From positions 11,554 through 75,553 of the forward strand of contig JAYWEM010000001.1 in the NCBI GenBank assembly GCA_043779265.1: a stretch of 64,000 bases of DNA, written 5' to 3'. The stretch comes from a bacterium (GTDB lineage: Bacteria; Eisenbacteria; RBG-16-71-46). A program made the translations under genes and the position numbers. The first letter of the stretch is position 1, and each line of letters begins with the position of its first letter. Of the stretch, positions 57,292-64,000 are shown in pieces. The notes under the pieces were generated by a model that saw only the letters and a list, made by a program, of their open reading frames with translations, was not told the origin of the DNA and did no database searches.

Positions 57292-58368
57292 ATGAGCGAC
57301 CTCCGCAACTTGGATGATCCGGACGGTCTCTACAAGCGGGGCCCGGCCGCGAACAAGATGACGTCGGACTCGCTGACCCAGCGCGAGATCGACACGATCC
57401 TCCAGCGCACGACCACGGTGCCGCTCGCGCCGGTGCTCGCCGAGGAGGTCGTTCCCTACAACTTCAGTCGGCCGCCTCGCATCTCCAAGGAGCGACGGGC
57501 GACGCTGGAGTCCATCTACGCGCGGTTCGCCCTGTCGTTGCAGGGGTTGCTCAGCTCCCTGCTGCGTACGCCCGTCGACATCGACGCGAGCAGCATCGAG
57601 CAGTCCATGTTCTCGGAGTTCATCCTCTCGCTCGGCCGTCCCTGTGCTTCCTTCATCTTCAACGTGGGTGACCGCCTGGGAGCGCAGGGGGCGATGGATC
57701 TCAGCACCGATTTCTCCTTCCACTTCGTCGACCGGCTGTTCGGCGGACCCGGCGATGCCGTCGATCTCCAGCGCTCCCTCACGCCACTCGAACAGTCCGT
57801 GGTCCGGAATTTAAGCGACCGCACGCTCGGACTGCTTCGCGAAGCCTGGGCGGAGCACCTCCCGATCAATCCCAAGGTGACCGGTTTCGAGTCGAATCCC
57901 GAGATGCTGCAGATCACGAGCCGCGAGGACAACGTGCTGGTGACGAACCTCGAGATCCGCTCGGCGTCGTACCAGGGGTTCATCTCGCTGTGTCTGCCGA
58001 TGGCCGCGCTCGAGACGTTCCTCCAGGAGAAGGGCATGGCCCGCCAGAGCGTGCGGCTGTCCGAGTCGGAGCAGGGTGACCAGCGCCGGCTCGCGATCGG
58101 TGGACTGCAGCACGCGCATGTCTCCGGCTCCGCCCGCCTGCCGCAGTTGTGGCTCACCGCGCGTCAGATCTCCGAACTGGCCCCGGGCCGCGTGCTGCAG
58201 ACGTCGCACCCGGTCGACGCTCCCATCGAACTTCATCTCAATGGCCGGCTCCGGTTCATCGGCGCGCTCGGTCAGGTCCGTCGTCAACTCGGGCTCCGTA
58301 TCTCGGAGCGCGTTCACACACCGGATGCCGAAAGGCCCGTCCGGACTCGTCAGGGGAGGGTGATGTGA
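57292..58368 (+). CDS. fliM: flagellar motor switch protein FliM
   Basis: N-terminal 'LTQREIDTIL' (CheY-P binding-like), then 'EVVPYNFSRPPRISKERRATLE', a CheC-like middle and a SpoA-like C-terminus. Confidence 0.85.
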   Translation: MSDLRNLDDPDGLYKRGPAANKMTSDSLTQREIDTILQRTTTVPLAPVLAEEVVPYNFSRPPRISKERRATLESIYARFALSLQGLLSSLLRTPVDIDASSIEQSMFSEFILSLGRPCASFIFNVGDRLGAQGAMDLSTDFSFHFVDRLFGGPGDAVDLQRSLTPLEQSVVRNLSDRTLGLLREAWAEHLPINPKVTGFESNPEMLQITSREDNVLVTNLEIRSASYQGFISLCLPMAALETFLQEKGMARQSVRLSESEQGDQRRLAIGGLQHAHVSGSARLPQLWLTARQISELAPGRVLQTSHPVDAPIELHLNGRLRFIGALGQVRRQLGLRISERVHTPDAERPVRTRQGRVM

Positions 58369-58691
58369 GTCTCCAGGATCCCGTTCCGGATCTGCCTTCG
58401 ATCTCCGAAGTCGTCATGGAGGATGCGGTGGGGCCGCCCTCGTTCGATGCACTGCTCGATGTCTCCATGCCGGTGGCGATCGAGATCGGCCGTGCCAGCA
58501 TGACCGTGGCGGAGATCCTGCAGGTTGGGGTCGGCTCGGTCGTCCAGCTCGATCGCATCGTCGGCGAGCCGGTGGACATCTATGTGAGCGATCGCCGCTT
58601 CGCGCAGGGTGAGGTCGTGGTCGTGGGCGAGCACTTCGGTGTTCGGATCACCCGCGTGCTCGGCCAGGTGGCTTCACAAGAGGCGGCCTGA
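58365..58691 (+). CDS. fliN: flagellar motor switch protein FliN
   Basis: SpoA domain 'VAIEIGRASMTVAEILQVGVGSVVQLDRIVGEPVDIYVSDRRFAQGEVVVVGEHFGVRI'. GTG start overlaps the fliM stop. Confidence 0.85.
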   Translation: MSLQDPVPDLPSISEVVMEDAVGPPSFDALLDVSMPVAIEIGRASMTVAEILQVGVGSVVQLDRIVGEPVDIYVSDRRFAQGEVVVVGEHFGVRITRVLGQVASQEAA

Positions 58692-58695
58692 CCCG

Positions 58696-59949
58696 ATGCT
58701 CGCACTTCTCGGCCCGCTCGCCATCGCGCTCGGATTGTGTGCTCTCGCGGCTGCCGTGCTCCGTCGCTGGCCCATGAACGGCCTGACCCGAGGCTCCGCC
58801 TGCACGCTGCGTGTCCTGCAGCGCACGTCGGTGGGGCCGCGTCAGGGTGTCGCACTGCTCCAGGTCGATGAACGCGTGCTCGTCGTCTCGCTCGGCGACG
58901 ATGGTGCCCGCCTCCTCACGGAACTCGAGGGTGAATCGCGGATCCGTGCCCTGGCCTCGCTGCCCCCGGCGCCCGTGGCCGGCGCCCCGCTCCTGAGCTT
59001 CCCGGCCGAGCTGAAGGCGTTGCGCGTCATGTTCACCCGAGGCGCTCGTTCGGTCGGTTCGCGTGCCGCCGCCCTGATGCTGGCGACGCTGATGCTGACC
59101 GCGAGTGCGTACGCGCAGACGTCGACTCCGCCGACCTCGACCTCACTTCCTCCGGGCGTGCGGTCGCTGATTCCTCCTCCGGTTGCCGTCCCGGGTCCCG
59201 CCAAGGGGCCGGTGGCCAACACGGCCGCCCAGCCGCGGTCGTCGAGGCTGCCCGGTCCGGTCGTCACCCCGCCGCCGATGCCCGAGGTCGACATCCGCAT
59301 CGGCGAGGGCAAGGACCAGATCCGCCTCTCGGGAGCCGTCGGGCTCGTCGTGTTCCTCGGCGTGCTCACGTTGCTGCCTGCGCTGTTCCTCCTGATGACC
59401 AGCTTCACACGCATCCTGATCGTGATGCACTTCCTGCGCTCGGCGCTCGGCACACAGACGACGCCGCCGTCGCAGCTGCTCGTCGCGCTCTCGGTGCTGC
59501 TCACCGGTGTGGTGATGCACCCGGTGCTCGAGCAGACGAATCAGCAGGCGCTGCAGCCTTACTTCCAAGGGCAGATCACTCAGGCCGAGGCCTACACGCA
59601 GGCCGTGGCGCCGTTCCGCGACTTCATGTTGCGCAACGTCCGCGAGCAGGACCTCGCCACGTTCGCTCGGCTGGCCCGCATCGACGAAGTGTCCGATGAG
59701 AGCGAACTGCCGACGCTCGTCGTGGTCTCCGCATTCGTCATCAGCGAGCTTCGCATCGCGTTCCAGATGGGATTCGTCCTCTATCTGCCTTTCGTCGTGA
59801 TCGATGTCATCGTCGCCTCCGTCCTCATGAGTCTGGGTATGTTCATGCTGCCGCCGATCATGATCTCCATGCCGCTCAAGCTCCTGCTCTTCGTGCTGGC
59901 GGATGGCTGGTCGTTGATCGTCCAGAACCTCGTCGCGAGCTTCCGCTAG
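58696..59949 (+). CDS. fliP: FliO–FliP in-frame fused ORF (FliO-like N-terminal 111 aa, then complete FliP with its signal peptide)
   Basis: Residues 1–111 are FliO-like: one TM helix followed by 'RVLQRTSVGPRQGVALLQVDERVLVVSLGDDGARLL'. There is no stop codon before an in-frame ATG (~59029) that starts a typical FliP signal peptide 'MFTRGARSVGSRAAALMLATLMLTASAYAQ'. A Pro-rich linker follows, then FliP motifs 'LMTSFTRILIVMHFLRSALGTQTTPPSQ'. Confidence 0.75.
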   Translation: MLALLGPLAIALGLCALAAAVLRRWPMNGLTRGSACTLRVLQRTSVGPRQGVALLQVDERVLVVSLGDDGARLLTELEGESRIRALASLPPAPVAGAPLLSFPAELKALRVMFTRGARSVGSRAAALMLATLMLTASAYAQTSTPPTSTSLPPGVRSLIPPPVAVPGPAKGPVANTAAQPRSSRLPGPVVTPPPMPEVDIRIGEGKDQIRLSGAVGLVVFLGVLTLLPALFLLMTSFTRILIVMHFLRSALGTQTTPPSQLLVALSVLLTGVVMHPVLEQTNQQALQPYFQGQITQAEAYTQAVAPFRDFMLRNVREQDLATFARLARIDEVSDESELPTLVVVSAFVISELRIAFQMGFVLYLPFVVIDVIVASVLMSLGMFMLPPIMISMPLKLLLFVLADGWSLIVQNLVASFR

Positions 59950-59951
59950 TC

Positions 59952-60224
59952 ATGTCCGGCGCCCTCGGCATCGATCTCTTGAGACAGGCGGTCATGCTGT
60001 CCTTGCAGGTGGCGGCTCCGATGCTGGCCACGGCGTTGATCGTCGGTCTACTGGTCAGCGTGTTCCAGGCGGTGACGCAGCTCCAGGAGCAGACGCTGAC
60101 GTTCATCCCGAAGCTCCTGGTCATCGCGACCGTGTTCATCCTCGCGCTGCCGTGGGCGCTGAATCGCCTGGTCGAGTACATGGCGATGATCCTGCGCAGT
60201 CTGCCGGCGGTGGCGGCCTCGTGA
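59952..60224 (+). CDS. fliQ: flagellar export apparatus protein FliQ
   Basis: 90 aa with two TM helices; 'LLRQAVMLSLQVAAPMLATALIVGLLVSVFQAVTQLQEQTLTFIPK'. Confidence 0.9.
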   Translation: MSGALGIDLLRQAVMLSLQVAAPMLATALIVGLLVSVFQAVTQLQEQTLTFIPKLLVIATVFILALPWALNRLVEYMAMILRSLPAVAAS

Positions 60225-61012
60225 ATGTGATCCCCGAGTTCCTCCGCACCGCGTGGTCGCCCGAGAACTGGCCGACCTTCGTGCTGCTGACCGCTCGCAT
60301 CGGCGGCCTGATGTCCACGGCGCCGCTGTGGTCGATGACCGCCATCCCGATGCGACTGCGCTCGGCGATCACGGTGCTGATCGGGCTCGTGCTCCTGCCG
60401 GGGACGAAGCCCGTTCCCGCGCCGGTGGATGTGGTCGGATTCCCGCTCCCCGTCGCCACCGAGATGATCATCGGCATCGCGATCGGGTTGGTGGCGGCCG
60501 TGCTGGTGCATGCAGCGACGATGGCGGGCGAAGTGCTCTCGCTCCAGATGGGACTGTCGCTCGGACCGGCGTACTCGCCCGTGCCCGAGATGCAGGTGAG
60601 CGGTGTCGCTCCCTTCGTCTCCCTCATGGCGTTGTTCGTCTATGTCGCCGTCGGGGGCCATCTCGTGATGCTCGAGGGCCTCGCTCGCTCGATCGAACTG
60701 CTCCCTCCGGGAGGCGGGGCGAACTTGGGCGGAGGAACGCTGCTCGTGGTCGCGGCCAATCAGATGTTCACGTGCGCCGTGACGATCGCGGGCCCGGTGA
60801 TGGCGACGCTGCTGCTCGTCAACGTGGCCCTCGCGATCCTCAGCCGAGCCGTGCCGCAGATCAACGCCATGCTCATCTCGTTCCCGGTCTCGATCGGCGT
60901 CGGTCTCCTGATGCTGGCCGCTTCGATGCCCTTGGTCTCCTCCACGACCGCCCAATGGTTCGGCGAGGTCCCCACGCAGATCGAGCGCGTGTTGGACACG
61001 CTGATGCCCTGA
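60221..61012 (+). CDS. fliR: flagellar export apparatus protein FliR
   Basis: Six-TM protein following fliQ. GTG start overlaps the fliQ stop (GTGA). Confidence 0.85.
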   Translation: MNVIPEFLRTAWSPENWPTFVLLTARIGGLMSTAPLWSMTAIPMRLRSAITVLIGLVLLPGTKPVPAPVDVVGFPLPVATEMIIGIAIGLVAAVLVHAATMAGEVLSLQMGLSLGPAYSPVPEMQVSGVAPFVSLMALFVYVAVGGHLVMLEGLARSIELLPPGGGANLGGGTLLVVAANQMFTCAVTIAGPVMATLLLVNVALAILSRAVPQINAMLISFPVSIGVGLLMLAASMPLVSSTTAQWFGEVPTQIERVLDTLMP

Positions 61013-61021
61013 GAGGACGCC

Positions 61022-62104
61022 ATGGCGGAAGACGAAGGCCAGGACAGGACCGAGGACCCCACCGGGAAACGACGCGAGCAGGCGCGTGAGGAAGGCCAGA
61101 TCGCGCGCAGCCCCGATCTCGCGGCGGTCGCGATGCTGCTCGCAGGCGCTGGCGTCCTCGCGGCATCGGGCGGGGCGCCCCTTGCGGATTTCGCCGTCGG
61201 CGTGACGCGAAGCTCGGCGGCGTCCCTGTCGGCGGGTGAGCTCACCTCCGCCGGCGCCACACAGATGCTCACGGGGATCGTCACCGGCTTGCTTCGCGCA
61301 CTCGCCCCGTTCGCGATCGGCGTGACGCTGGTCACGATCCTCGTCCAGGTGGCGCAGACGCGCGGCCTGTTCACGACCAAGCCGCTCACCCCCAAGCTGT
61401 CCCACTTGAATCCGGTCAGCGGGATCAAGCGGATCGTCGGCATGGATGGCGTCGTCAATCTGTTGAAGGCGGTACTGAAGACGGCGGCCCTGGGCGCGGT
61501 CACGGCGTCCGTTCTGCACCAGTCGTGGCCCGAACTGATGTCGCTGGCCGAGCAGGGAGCGCCGGCGATTGCAGCGGTGATGGGCGGGCTCACGTTCAAG
61601 CTGACGGTGATCACGGGTCTCGCGTTCGCGGTCGTGGCCATCGCCGACTACGGCTACCAGTGGTACAAGAGCGAAAAGCAACTCAAGATGACGAAGCAGC
61701 AGGTCAAGCACGAGGGTCGCGAGTCCGACGGCGATCCGCACGTGAAGGCCCGCATTCGCTCGATGCAGCGCCAGCTCGCCCGCCAGCGCATGCTGCAGGC
61801 GGTTGCCACGGCCGACGTCGTGGTCACGAACCCGACGCACATCGCCGTCGCCCTGCGCTACGATCCCTCGGTCAGTCCGGCTCCGATCGTGGTCGCAATG
61901 GGCGAGCGCAAGCTCGCCGAGCGCATCAAGGCCATCGCACGCGCGGCCGCCGTGCCGACGATCGAGAACAAGCCCATCGCGCGGGCGCTGCTCGCGACCT
62001 CGTCGATCGGACATCCCATCCCGCCGGCGCTTTACGCGGCTGTCGCCGAGATCCTGGCCTTCGTCTATCGCCGACGTCGGGCGAATGAAGGGGCGGCGGC
62101 GTGA
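61022..62104 (+). CDS. flhB: flagellar export switch protein FlhB
   Basis: 'EDPTGKRREQAREEGQIARS', four TM helices and the NPTH autocleavage motif ('VVVTNPTHIAVAL'). Confidence 0.9.
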   Translation: MAEDEGQDRTEDPTGKRREQAREEGQIARSPDLAAVAMLLAGAGVLAASGGAPLADFAVGVTRSSAASLSAGELTSAGATQMLTGIVTGLLRALAPFAIGVTLVTILVQVAQTRGLFTTKPLTPKLSHLNPVSGIKRIVGMDGVVNLLKAVLKTAALGAVTASVLHQSWPELMSLAEQGAPAIAAVMGGLTFKLTVITGLAFAVVAIADYGYQWYKSEKQLKMTKQQVKHEGRESDGDPHVKARIRSMQRQLARQRMLQAVATADVVVTNPTHIAVALRYDPSVSPAPIVVAMGERKLAERIKAIARAAAVPTIENKPIARALLATSSIGHPIPPALYAAVAEILAFVYRRRRANEGAAA

Positions 62105-64000
62105 GCTCGATCGGCCTGACAACGCCGCCGGCTGCGGTTCCACCGATGGGGGGAGGCGCCTCGACGCGTCCCGCTCCCGGCAAGGGCACCTCCGGCCGAG
62201 GCGCCCCTCCGGGGGGCCGTCGGCCATCGCTGCGCTTGCCCGCTGCGGCTGAAACGCTCGTCGGACTGGGCGTCGTCACGATCGTCGCACTGCTCATCGT
62301 TCCGCTGCCGCCGTTCATCCTCGATGCGCTTCTGGCGCTGTCCTTCGCGCTGTCGATCGTCGTGCTGTTGGTCACACTGTCCTGCCGTGAGCCGCTCGAG
62401 TTCAGCATCTTCCCGACGCTGCTGCTGCTGCTCACACTGTTCCGACTCGGACTCAATGTCAGTAGTACGAGGCTGATCCTCGCGACCGGACAGGCCGGTG
62501 AGGTGATCCACGCCTTCGGTCAGTTCGTCGTCGGTGGCAACGTCGTCGTCGGCCTCGTCATCTTCCTGATCCTGGTGGTCATCAACTTCATGGTGATCAC
62601 CAAGGGCGCCGGGCGCGTCGCTGAAGTCGCAGCGCGCTTCACGTTGGATGCCATGCCCGGTCGTCAGATGAGCATCGACGCGGACCTGTCCGCGGGGATC
62701 ATCGACGAGCACGAGGCTCGCCGCCGCCGCGAGGAGATCAGCCGCTACGCCGACTTCTACGGAGCGATGGACGGCTCCGCGAAGTTCGTGCGCGGGGATG
62801 CGGTCGCGGGGCTTGTCATCACCGCCATCAATCTGGTGGGTGGCTTCGTGATCGGGATGACCCAGCAGGGGATGAGCGCCGAAGATGCGCTGACCACGTT
62901 CACCCTGCTCTCGGTGGGTGATGGACTCGTGACCCAGATCCCGGCGCTCATCGTGAGCACGGCCTCGGGTCTGCTGGTGACCTACGGTTCGGGCGGTGTG
63001 GCGCTCGGACCGACCCTCAACGCCCAGCTGGCACGCGATCCCCGAGTCATGTGGATGGCGTCGGCCATCCTGACCCTGTTCGCACTCGTGCCCGGGTTGC
63101 CGACCTTGCCGTTCCTGACGCTCGCCGCAGCGTGCGCCGGTCTCGCGATGTGGCTCTCGCGTCAGGCGGATGCCGCCGAGCAGGAGGAGGCCGATGCCGT
63201 CGAACCCATGCCCACGCCATCGTCGCAGCCCGCGCTCAGCGAGGTGCTCGCGGTCGAGCCACTCGAACTCGAAGTCGGCTACGGGCTCATTCCGCTCATC
63301 GATGAGGCGCAAGGGGGTGACCTGCTGCAGCGCATCGGGATCCTCCGCAAGCAGCTCGCCTTCGAGTTGGGCATCCTCGTCCCCGCGGTTCGCATCCGCG
63401 ACAACATCCAGTTGAGCGCTCAGGAGTATCTGGTTCGCATCCGCGGCGTGAAGAGTTCGGGCGGCGAGATCATGCCGCGGCAGTTGTTCGCGCTCGATAC
63501 CGGCGGTGCGAGCGGAACGCTCGAGGGTGTGCATACCAAGGACCCGAGTTTCGGGCTGCCCGCGACCTGGATCGCACCCGATCGTCGTGCCTCCGCCGAG
63601 GCGCTCGGGTGGAGCGTCGTCGAGCCACCGACCGTGCTCGCCACGCATCTGATGGAGACCATCCGCCAGCACGCGGCCGAGCTGCTGACTCGCCAGCATG
63701 TCCGCGAACTGGTCGATGCGCTCAAGGAGACCCACCCGGCACTCGTCGACGACACGGTGCCCGGGCGAGTGCCGCTCGCCACGCTGCATCGCGTGATGCA
63801 GCGACTGCTCAAGGAGGGGCTCCCGGTTCGCGATCTGGCGACGATCCTCGAAGCGCTCTCCGATGCGTCGGAACTCACCAAGGATCCCGAGATGTTGACC
63901 GAGCACGCTCGGCGAGCGCTCGCACCCGTGCTCGCGCAGTTGCTCGGTGGCGGAGATCGCGCAGTGCGTGCGATCACGGTGGGTCCCCGCCTCGAGTTGA
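62101..64000 (+). CDS. flhA: flagellar export gate protein FlhA (3' end outside the window)
   Basis: 'LIVPLPPFILDALLALSFALSIVVLL', 'FPTLLLLLTLFRL', 'GRQMSIDADL' and a cytoplasmic FHIPEP domain. GTG start overlaps the flhB stop. ORF is open to the window end. Confidence 0.9.
   Translation, partial: MSSIGLTTPPAAVPPMGGGASTRPAPGKGTSGRGAPPGGRRPSLRLPAAAETLVGLGVVTIVALLIVPLPPFILDALLALSFALSIVVLLVTLSCREPLEFSIFPTLLLLLTLFRLGLNVSSTRLILATGQAGEVIHAFGQFVVGGNVVVGLVIFLILVVINFMVITKGAGRVAEVAARFTLDAMPGRQMSIDADLSAGIIDEHEARRRREEISRYADFYGAMDGSAKFVRGDAVAGLVITAINLVGGFVIGMTQQGMSAEDALTTFTLLSVGDGLVTQIPALIVSTASGLLVTYGSGGVALGPTLNAQLARDPRVMWMASAILTLFALVPGLPTLPFLTLAAACAGLAMWLSRQADAAEQEEADAVEPMPTPSSQPALSEVLAVEPLELEVGYGLIPLIDEAQGGDLLQRIGILRKQLAFELGILVPAVRIRDNIQLSAQEYLVRIRGVKSSGGEIMPRQLFALDTGGASGTLEGVHTKDPSFGLPATWIAPDRRASAEALGWSVVEPPTVLATHLMETIRQHAAELLTRQHVRELVDALKETHPALVDDTVPGRVPLATLHRVMQRLLKEGLPVRDLATILEALSDASELTKDPEMLTEHARRALAPVLAQLLGGGDRAVRAITVGPRLEL

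Follow-up and report, generated by a model that had tools for sequence, protein, structure and literature searches.

The window analyzed here, a stretch of 64,000 nucleotides (nt) from contig JAYWEM010000001.1 (positions 11,554–75,553, forward strand) of a bacterium of the GTDB lineage Eisenbacteria, contains a flagellar locus which raises two questions: are fliO and fliP truly joined in one reading frame, and if so, how would FliP be obtained from the joint product? All coordinates below are positions in the window. The gene in question is the following.

58696..59949, plus strand: fliO-fliP fusion gene, 417 codons and a TAG stop codon (59947–59949), from the open reading frame (ORF) listing, Pfam, NCBIfam and the public gene call.

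The ORF listing shows a single ORF across this region (58609..59949, plus strand), which is 446 amino acids (aa) long when counted from a GTG; a start at the in-frame ATG of 58696 shortens the chain to 417 aa. The public gene call is an identical 417-aa protein and is present on contigs of two assemblies, one of them a 191-kb metagenome contig. Pfam places a FliO domain (PF04347) at aa positions 22–106 and a FliP domain (PF00813) at aa positions 221–412, both in the same frame. The FliO match scores 34.2 bits within the fusion and 37.8 bits when aa 1–111 are taken alone (cut-off 22). The FliP match scores 247.1 bits (cut-off 26.9) and covers profile positions 2–191 of 191, and the NCBIfam family TIGR01103 (fliP) is also passed, with 247 bits versus a cut-off of 217.45. 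The initial annotation of this DNA described a FliO-like segment that is followed by a complete FliP in one frame with no stop codon between them, and the presence of both Pfam domains in the 417-aa ORF bears this out. The FliP part was also compared with solved structures.

59335..59946, plus strand: FliP core (aa 214–417), from Pfam, NCBIfam and the PDB alignment.

The core matches Salmonella FliP (6f2d chain A) with an E-value of 3.6e-56, and residues 214–416 of the fusion align with residues 41–243 of Salmonella FliP in solved FliPQR complexes. The same PDB comparison yielded no solved FliO chain.

PF04347 and PF00813 are present together in one protein of 369–444 aa in 118 of the 120 best database homologues, which extend to about 50% identity. 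One exception is P0099, a 299-aa sequence with FliP only, which is uninformative as a split relative because its gene begins 101 nt from a contig end; the other is truncated inside FliO. Related loci were also collected with one genome taken per GTDB species, and ten of them display full-length similarity: L003 (an unclassified “uncultured bacterium” metagenome-assembled genome), L004 (Ca. Eisenbacteria sp. RBC018), and L005–L011 and L019 (Gemmatimonadota, including a Gemmatimonas). In all ten, some of them from genomes of 57–58% GC, both Pfam domains lie within one stop-to-stop ORF, and PF04347 passes its cut-off in each (31.6–52.4 bits). A hidden Markov model was then built from the FliO part of the fusions of this lineage and run on the collected loci. 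It places FliO inside the FliP ORF in 14 loci (L001 and L002, which are the window's own contig, and 12 GTDB loci) and, in 59 loci of Firmicutes, Planctomycetota and other groups, in an ORF of its own immediately upstream.

The FliO-FliP fusion is real and conserved, and there is hardly any doubt on this point. The clade-wide conservation of the one-ORF arrangement also shows that the fusion is old and clade-specific, i.e. it is the normal arrangement across Gemmatimonadota and Ca. Eisenbacteria. To judge by the best hits, the window most likely belongs to a Ca. Eisenbacteria-like or Gemmatimonadota-related organism. The initial annotation had proposed a natural fusion, and the homologues and related loci agree with this; its novelty, which was made to depend on what related genomes would show, does not stand, as these genomes commonly carry the same fusion. 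The protein is in fact already in public databases, with both Pfam domains recorded. Since NCBI and JGI name it only “FliP”, a survey at the level of genes can overlook FliO in Gemmatimonadota and Eisenbacteria and count it as missing by mistake. A search with FliO only against 1.84 billion representatives gave a mixture of short and fused proteins, in which the short ones are not separable from fragments without genomic context.

Other architectures are also seen among the proteins from this search. P0144 (608 aa), P0168 (610 aa), P0173 (542 aa), P0142 (419 aa) and P0197 (450 aa) have a FliO-like N-terminal domain and 300–500 further residues; these further residues show at most a short and weak local phmmer match to FliP in P0144, P0168 and P0173, and none in P0142 and P0197. 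P0146, P0161, P0170 and P0198 (487–529 aa) are FliO-FliP fusions with approximately 160–200 residues between the FliO and FliP matches. In addition, some homologues are labelled Burkholderiaceae or Ca. Sulfotelmatobacter despite a close similarity to Gemmatimonadota/Eisenbacteria sequences, and to judge by that similarity these look like mis-binned contigs.

The second question concerns the region where FliO and FliP are joined, which has the following element.

59008..59115, plus strand: internal Sec-type FliP signal peptide, with the n-region at aa 105–123, the h-region at aa 124–136 and the c-region SAYA at aa 137–140 (alignment).

In the window the n-region is ELKALRVMFTRGARSVGSR (5 K/R), the h-region is AAALMLATLMLTA (13 residues) and the c-region reads SAYA↓QTS, where the arrow marks the site behind Ala140 at which signal peptidase I is predicted to act (A-Y-A↓Q). 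In the 119 fusions with a length of 360 aa or more, the stretch from FliO to FliP varies in length and sequence but always resembles a Sec signal peptide: a basic n-region is followed by a short h-region rich in Leu and Ala, in which a Pro is often near the end, and then by A-x-A and a Gln. An alignment of 84 fusions displays the same pattern by position. Position 138 (−3) is Ala in 55 of the 84, the remainder being mostly Val, Leu, Gly and Ser; Ala is found in 79 sequences at position 140 (−1), and Gln in 72 at position 141 (+1). Between Leu77 and Pro166, no residue other than Ala140 is conserved at a level of at least 90%. The cleavable-looking signal peptide that the initial annotation ascribed to FliP is thus present, both in the n-, h- and c-regions of the window and in the A-x-A↓Q conserved in the alignment. 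FliP has a Sec signal peptide (PMC5542435), and in Salmonella the cut in FliP falls between residues 21 and 22 and gives a mature form that starts with Gln (PMC2947984).

An AlphaFold2 (AF2) model of the fusion was built on the alignment of 84 fusions (mean predicted local distance difference test score, pLDDT, 71). The predicted order is a helix at 5–24, strands at 38–77, a short helix at 80–87, helices at 102–119 and 122–136, a low-confidence coil at 137–198, a hairpin at 199–212 and the FliP helices at 214–416. Besides the signal peptide, the parts ahead of the FliP core are listed here.

58708..58767, plus strand: FliO transmembrane helix (aa 5–24), an AF2 helix that ends with Arg23-Arg24 on the side predicted to be cytoplasmic.

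58759..59013, plus strand: FliO Pfam domain (aa 22–106), whose core in the AF2 model is a four-strand beta domain at aa 38–77 (58807–58926).

59116..59265, plus strand: predicted Pro-rich periplasmic linker with which mature FliP begins (aa 141–190), of low confidence (disordered) in AF2 and variable in length and sequence among relatives.

59266..59334, plus strand: conserved segment PxVDIRIGEGxDxLxLSG (aa 191–213), a predicted beta hairpin just ahead of the first transmembrane helix (TM1) of FliP (AF2, alignment).

Block means of pLDDT are 91–97 over residues 41–80 and 67 for the block 31–40. The AF2 helix at 5–24 corresponds to the single transmembrane helix noted earlier for the FliO part, and the VALLQVDERVLVVSLGDDGARLL stretch highlighted at the same time falls within the modelled FliO beta domain. 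[quoted passage not shown] In the conserved segment at aa 191–213, which is part of mature FliP, P193, P196, G205 and G213 are invariant among the aligned fusions. This segment may be the N-terminal “beta-cap” recently described on FliPQR (PMC12403130).

A mode of membrane insertion can be proposed from these elements. Salmonella FliO has an N-out/C-in topology (PMC2947984). FliO stabilises FliP and promotes its assembly, and it is absent from the finished Salmonella basal body (PMC5542435). With an N-out/C-in FliO, placing the FliP signal peptide after the FliO cytoplasmic domain changes nothing, so that the fusion would be topologically seamless. Translation from the ATG at 58696 would produce one 44.5 kDa membrane precursor. 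The FliO helix (aa 5–24) would insert N-out/C-in and the beta domain (aa 38–77) would stay cytoplasmic. The retained FliP signal peptide (~aa 105–140) would then cross from inside to outside, as it does at a free N-terminus, which would place A-x-A at the periplasmic face and leave the remaining FliP in its usual orientation. Signal peptidase I would cut after Ala140, and the products would be a 14.5 kDa FliO, to which the signal peptide adds a second helix, and a mature FliP of 30.0 kDa starting from Gln. Such a polyprotein would secure co-insertion and a 1:1 supply of FliO and FliP, and FliO would then leave, as in Salmonella.

Several properties of the sequence are in accordance with this proposal. 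An internal signal peptide with n-, h- and c-regions is found where a polyprotein would need it, directed from inside to outside after a cytoplasmic segment when the FliO topology is taken from PMC2947984. The topology is further suggested by the 5 K/R of the n-region and by the AF2 order of transmembrane helix, beta domain, signal-peptide helix, disordered linker and FliP helices. As the h-region is kept short and the A-x-A↓Q of the c-region is conserved, cleavage by signal peptidase I is the most likely next step. Taken as a whole, we consider it fairly probable that this clade-wide fusion acts as a polyprotein cleaved by signal peptidase I, with the topology, the cleavage and the cis-chaperone benefit as its predicted parts. 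There is about an even chance that it is also a self-splitting device, in which the signal peptide, after the A-x-A↓Q cut, stays as the second helix of FliO; this would give a lineage-specific two-helix FliO that is made in a strict 1:1 ratio and chaperones its own FliP in cis.

Free FliP might alternatively come from an internal start. The initial annotation pointed to an ATG near 59029, and the codon is indeed present.

59029..59031, plus strand: internal ATG (Met112) at the start of the n-region of the FliP signal peptide, unconserved in relatives and with weak Shine-Dalgarno (SD)-like pairing.

The Met112 column is a gap in 54 of the 84 aligned fusions; its commonest residues are Leu, Arg, Gly and Ala, and Met is outside the top five. 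Only 39 of 118 fusions have any Met within the 8–40 residues ahead of the cleavage site. Four relatives (L008, L009, L011 and L019) lack any in-frame ATG, GTG or TTG before the n-region and have their next candidates inside the hydrophobic core, thus FliP in these relatives can be made solely within the fusion. The predicted pairing with the 16S 3′ end is −4.8 kcal/mol before 59029, compared to −7.8 at the fliO start, −11.9 for fliN and −8.2 for flhB. A scan of positions 58300–59400 found no promoter-like or terminator-like site, and the predicted RNA fold at the join is not better than that of shuffled sequences (z-score +1.16); an internal promoter, terminator or RNA structure at the join was rejected on these scans. 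A conserved internal start was rejected on the alignment columns and the DNA of relatives. The programmed internal start suggested in the initial annotation is thus not a conserved mechanism, given the unconserved Met112, the four relatives without a start codon and the weak SD pairing.

Three other explanations remain to be weighed against the cleaved polyprotein. The single frame could be an artefact, i.e. a sequencing or assembly frameshift, a missed stop codon or a chance open frame in DNA of 68% GC. An open frame alone is weak evidence at this GC content and the comparative evidence decides. Long spurious ORFs do arise in high-GC DNA; the window itself has a 783-aa antisense ORF, and Planctomycetota FliP ORFs run 255–294 codons upstream by chance with FliO in another frame. 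In the fusion, however, the two Pfam domains share a frame with few residues separating FliO from the signal peptide, and the same fused ORF is found in more than 100 homologues (50–84% identity) and persists in the 57–58% GC genomes. The GC content at third codon positions (GC3) in the fusion frame is 0.82–0.90 across all four segments (FliO, junction, linker and FliP). The closest two relatives (84% and 79% identity) differ from the window in FliO and FliP for the most part by synonymous changes at third positions, and the indels seen in the junction and linker span whole codons, so that coding-type GC3 and whole-codon indels continue through the join. Conservation, GC3 and whole-codon indels together rule out a frameshift, missed stop or chance ORF, and the probability of an artefact is negligible; the earlier worry on this point is settled by the stop-free ORF kept in the homologues and in 10/10 related species genomes. 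Dual expression in the window's genome is a narrower proposal: translation would start at 58696 for the fusion and at 59029 for a free 32.9 kDa pre-FliP with a normal N-terminal signal peptide. The ATG is exactly at the n-region start with a weak GAAGG 11 nt upstream, and each of the three closest sequences has a potential initiation codon no more than two codons from there (the window ATG, L003 GTG and L004 TTG), thus some internal initiation is possible in this sub-group. Some true starts in the operon are also weakly SD-paired, even more weakly than 59029 (fliM −3.9 and fliQ −2.2 kcal/mol). Nevertheless, Met is not conserved in that column and occurs ahead of the cleavage site in only the 39 of 118 fusions given above, four relatives have no start codon to use there, and the join lacks a promoter-like site or special RNA structure in the scans; moreover, the fusion product would persist, because there is no stop codon for ribosomes arriving from fliO. 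Dual expression is on balance improbable.

A permanent fusion is the third explanation and the main rival. Here the former signal peptide would be an uncleaved second transmembrane helix that tethers FliO to FliP, and a Pro-rich linker of 50–70 aa would give enough slack for FliP to be raised into the FliPQR complex with FliO still in the membrane. Internal hydrophobic segments frequently do remain uncleaved, and the linker is predicted to be disordered (AF2) and is longer in this clade than in Salmonella. The distance from the predicted cut to FliP TM1 is 73 aa (17 Pro) in the window versus ~19 aa in Salmonella FliP; as for the TSFTRI motif, its median distance from the cleavage site is 84 aa among the fusions (range 56–113), and in the window this distance is 94–96 aa. 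The linker was called unusually long in the initial annotation, which is correct in comparison to Salmonella but not within the clade, nor beside solved unfused FliP chains of 289 and 299 aa (8z5s, 6s3l), where ~87–98 residues are ahead of the conserved core; long N-terminal stretches are therefore not peculiar to fused FliP. In a stretch of 90 residues that is variable elsewhere, conservation is highest at the −1 Ala and +1 Gln, and this is hard to explain for a mere membrane anchor. In addition, an h-region of ~13 residues and the common Pro in the c-region are signal-peptide-like and not transmembrane-like, and FliO is missing from finished Salmonella basal bodies (PMC5542435). A permanent tether thus appears unlikely. 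Some points also weigh against the cleaved polyprotein itself. The FliO equivalog TIGR03500 is the top-scoring NCBIfam family for the N-terminal part, but its 45.2–48.3 bits are under the cut-off of 55.25. The argument for cleavage is drawn from motif conservation only, and A-x-A↓Q could have been kept simply because a free FliP ancestor had it, or because packing requires it. Signal-peptide cleavage after an earlier membrane helix is rarer in bacteria than N-terminal cleavage, and the possible start codons shared by the window, L003 and L004 likewise count on this side.

The fusion gene is found in a flagellar operon with these neighbours.

57292–58368, plus strand: fliM, ahead of fliN.

58365..58691, plus strand: fliN (108 aa), directly upstream of the fusion gene (ORF listing, public gene call).

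59952..60224, plus strand: fliQ (90 aa), directly downstream of the fusion gene and 2 nt past its stop codon; fliR, flhB and flhA follow.

The ATG at 58696 is 5 nt past the TGA stop codon of fliN (58689–58691), which leaves a 4-nt gap. In the public gene call the order is flgE, fliL, fliM, fliN, fusion gene, fliQ, fliR, flhB and flhA, and the downstream genes are assigned by Pfam as fliQ (PF01313), fliR (PF01311), flhB (PF01312) and flhA (PF00771), which is a flagellar operon context. FliO is in the expected place between fliN and FliP, as it follows fliN and continues into FliP. Within the operon (57292–62104) the public calls show a 4-nt overlap of fliM and fliN, a 2-nt gap between the fusion gene and fliQ and a 4-nt overlap of fliQ and fliR. 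This tight packing is consistent with translational coupling along the whole operon. The 783-aa antisense ORF (59876–62227, minus strand) lies opposite fliQ, fliR and flhB. It is rich in Arg, Gly and Asp, and is almost certainly a high-GC artefact and not a gene.

Fusion of FliO with FliP has also taken place outside of this clade. L056:1065-2267 and L064:2470-3675 (Ca. Syntrophopropionicum), from Peptococcaceae-like Firmicutes, resemble the window in having FliO and FliP with both Pfam domains in one ORF, and in a retained signal peptide, here ending ...REAAA↓QP. They differ from it in GC content (47–48%) and in that their Pelotomaculum relatives (L045 and L037) have overlapping genes, with fliO and fliP in different frames and a 46-nt overlap. 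The Peptococcaceae-like fusions arose independently of the Gemmatimonadota/Eisenbacteria fusion. The overlap in Pelotomaculum suggests how such fusions originate, as a small indel within it would be enough to fuse the genes. Two Planctomycetota candidates, L074:2176-3681 and L076:2257-3648, were rejected: there is no FliO Pfam match in frame, FliO being in a different overlapping frame, and these “fusions” are artefacts of a high GC content (67–70%). The 2025 FliO survey (PMC12403147) reports LysM and AMIN additions and length variation, and no mention of a FliP fusion was found in the parts of it that were examined, in which the large tables are incomplete.

The significance of the fusion is in what it may tell about FliO, since no other part of the flagellar export gate is understood so poorly; in Salmonella, FliO helps FliP to oligomerise and leaves afterwards. 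A lineage-fixed fusion with a preserved signal-peptidase site supports a direct FliO-FliP contact during membrane insertion, and suggests that a 1:1 supply of FliO and FliP suffices. It is also a ready-made construct for asking whether FliO must be released. If the self-splitting reading is true, it would represent a natural experiment on the handover of FliP by FliO to the FliP5Q4R1 gate. Current models are not overturned, and natural FliO-FliP fusions were known before. What is added here is the fixation across Gemmatimonadota and Eisenbacteria, the multiple origins, and the preservation of a signal-peptidase motif, and not of an internal start, at the join.

One close comparison is with the fliLMNOPQR operon of Salmonella and E. 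coli. The gene order fliN, fliO, fliP, fliQ, fliR is the same, as are a FliO that has just one transmembrane helix, with a small beta domain in the cytoplasm, and a FliP with a Sec signal peptide and A-x-A↓Q. The window differs in that there is no stop codon between the two genes, the signal peptide is internal, and the N-terminal linker of mature FliP is ~50 aa longer. A second comparison is with the FbcH cytochrome b/c1 precursor of Bradyrhizobium japonicum, reportedly described by Thöny-Meyer et al. in 1991 as a polyprotein that is cleaved at an internal signal peptide to give 1:1 products. In that system, two membrane proteins of one complex are likewise made as one precursor with an internal signal peptide before the second half; the protein families are unrelated, however, and cleavage was reportedly shown there by experiment, whereas here it is predicted. 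Natural FliR-FlhB fusions occur within the flagellar export gate, and an engineered one in Salmonella is said to have been made by Van Arnam et al. in 2004. These also join neighbouring export-apparatus genes in one frame with function kept, but the partners are others and both remain in the finished machine, while FliO normally leaves.

Another close example is the fliO-fliP fusion of Buchnera sp. APS, which Barker et al. 2010 (PMC2947984) cite, from the genome of Shigenobu et al. 2000, as support for a FliO-FliP interaction. There too a single polypeptide has FliO and then FliP, and it served as “Rosetta-stone” evidence of interaction. The Buchnera fusion is in a reduced endosymbiont genome and was treated as a lone curiosity, whereas the fusion described here is fixed across a free-living lineage, with a signal-peptidase motif conserved at the join.

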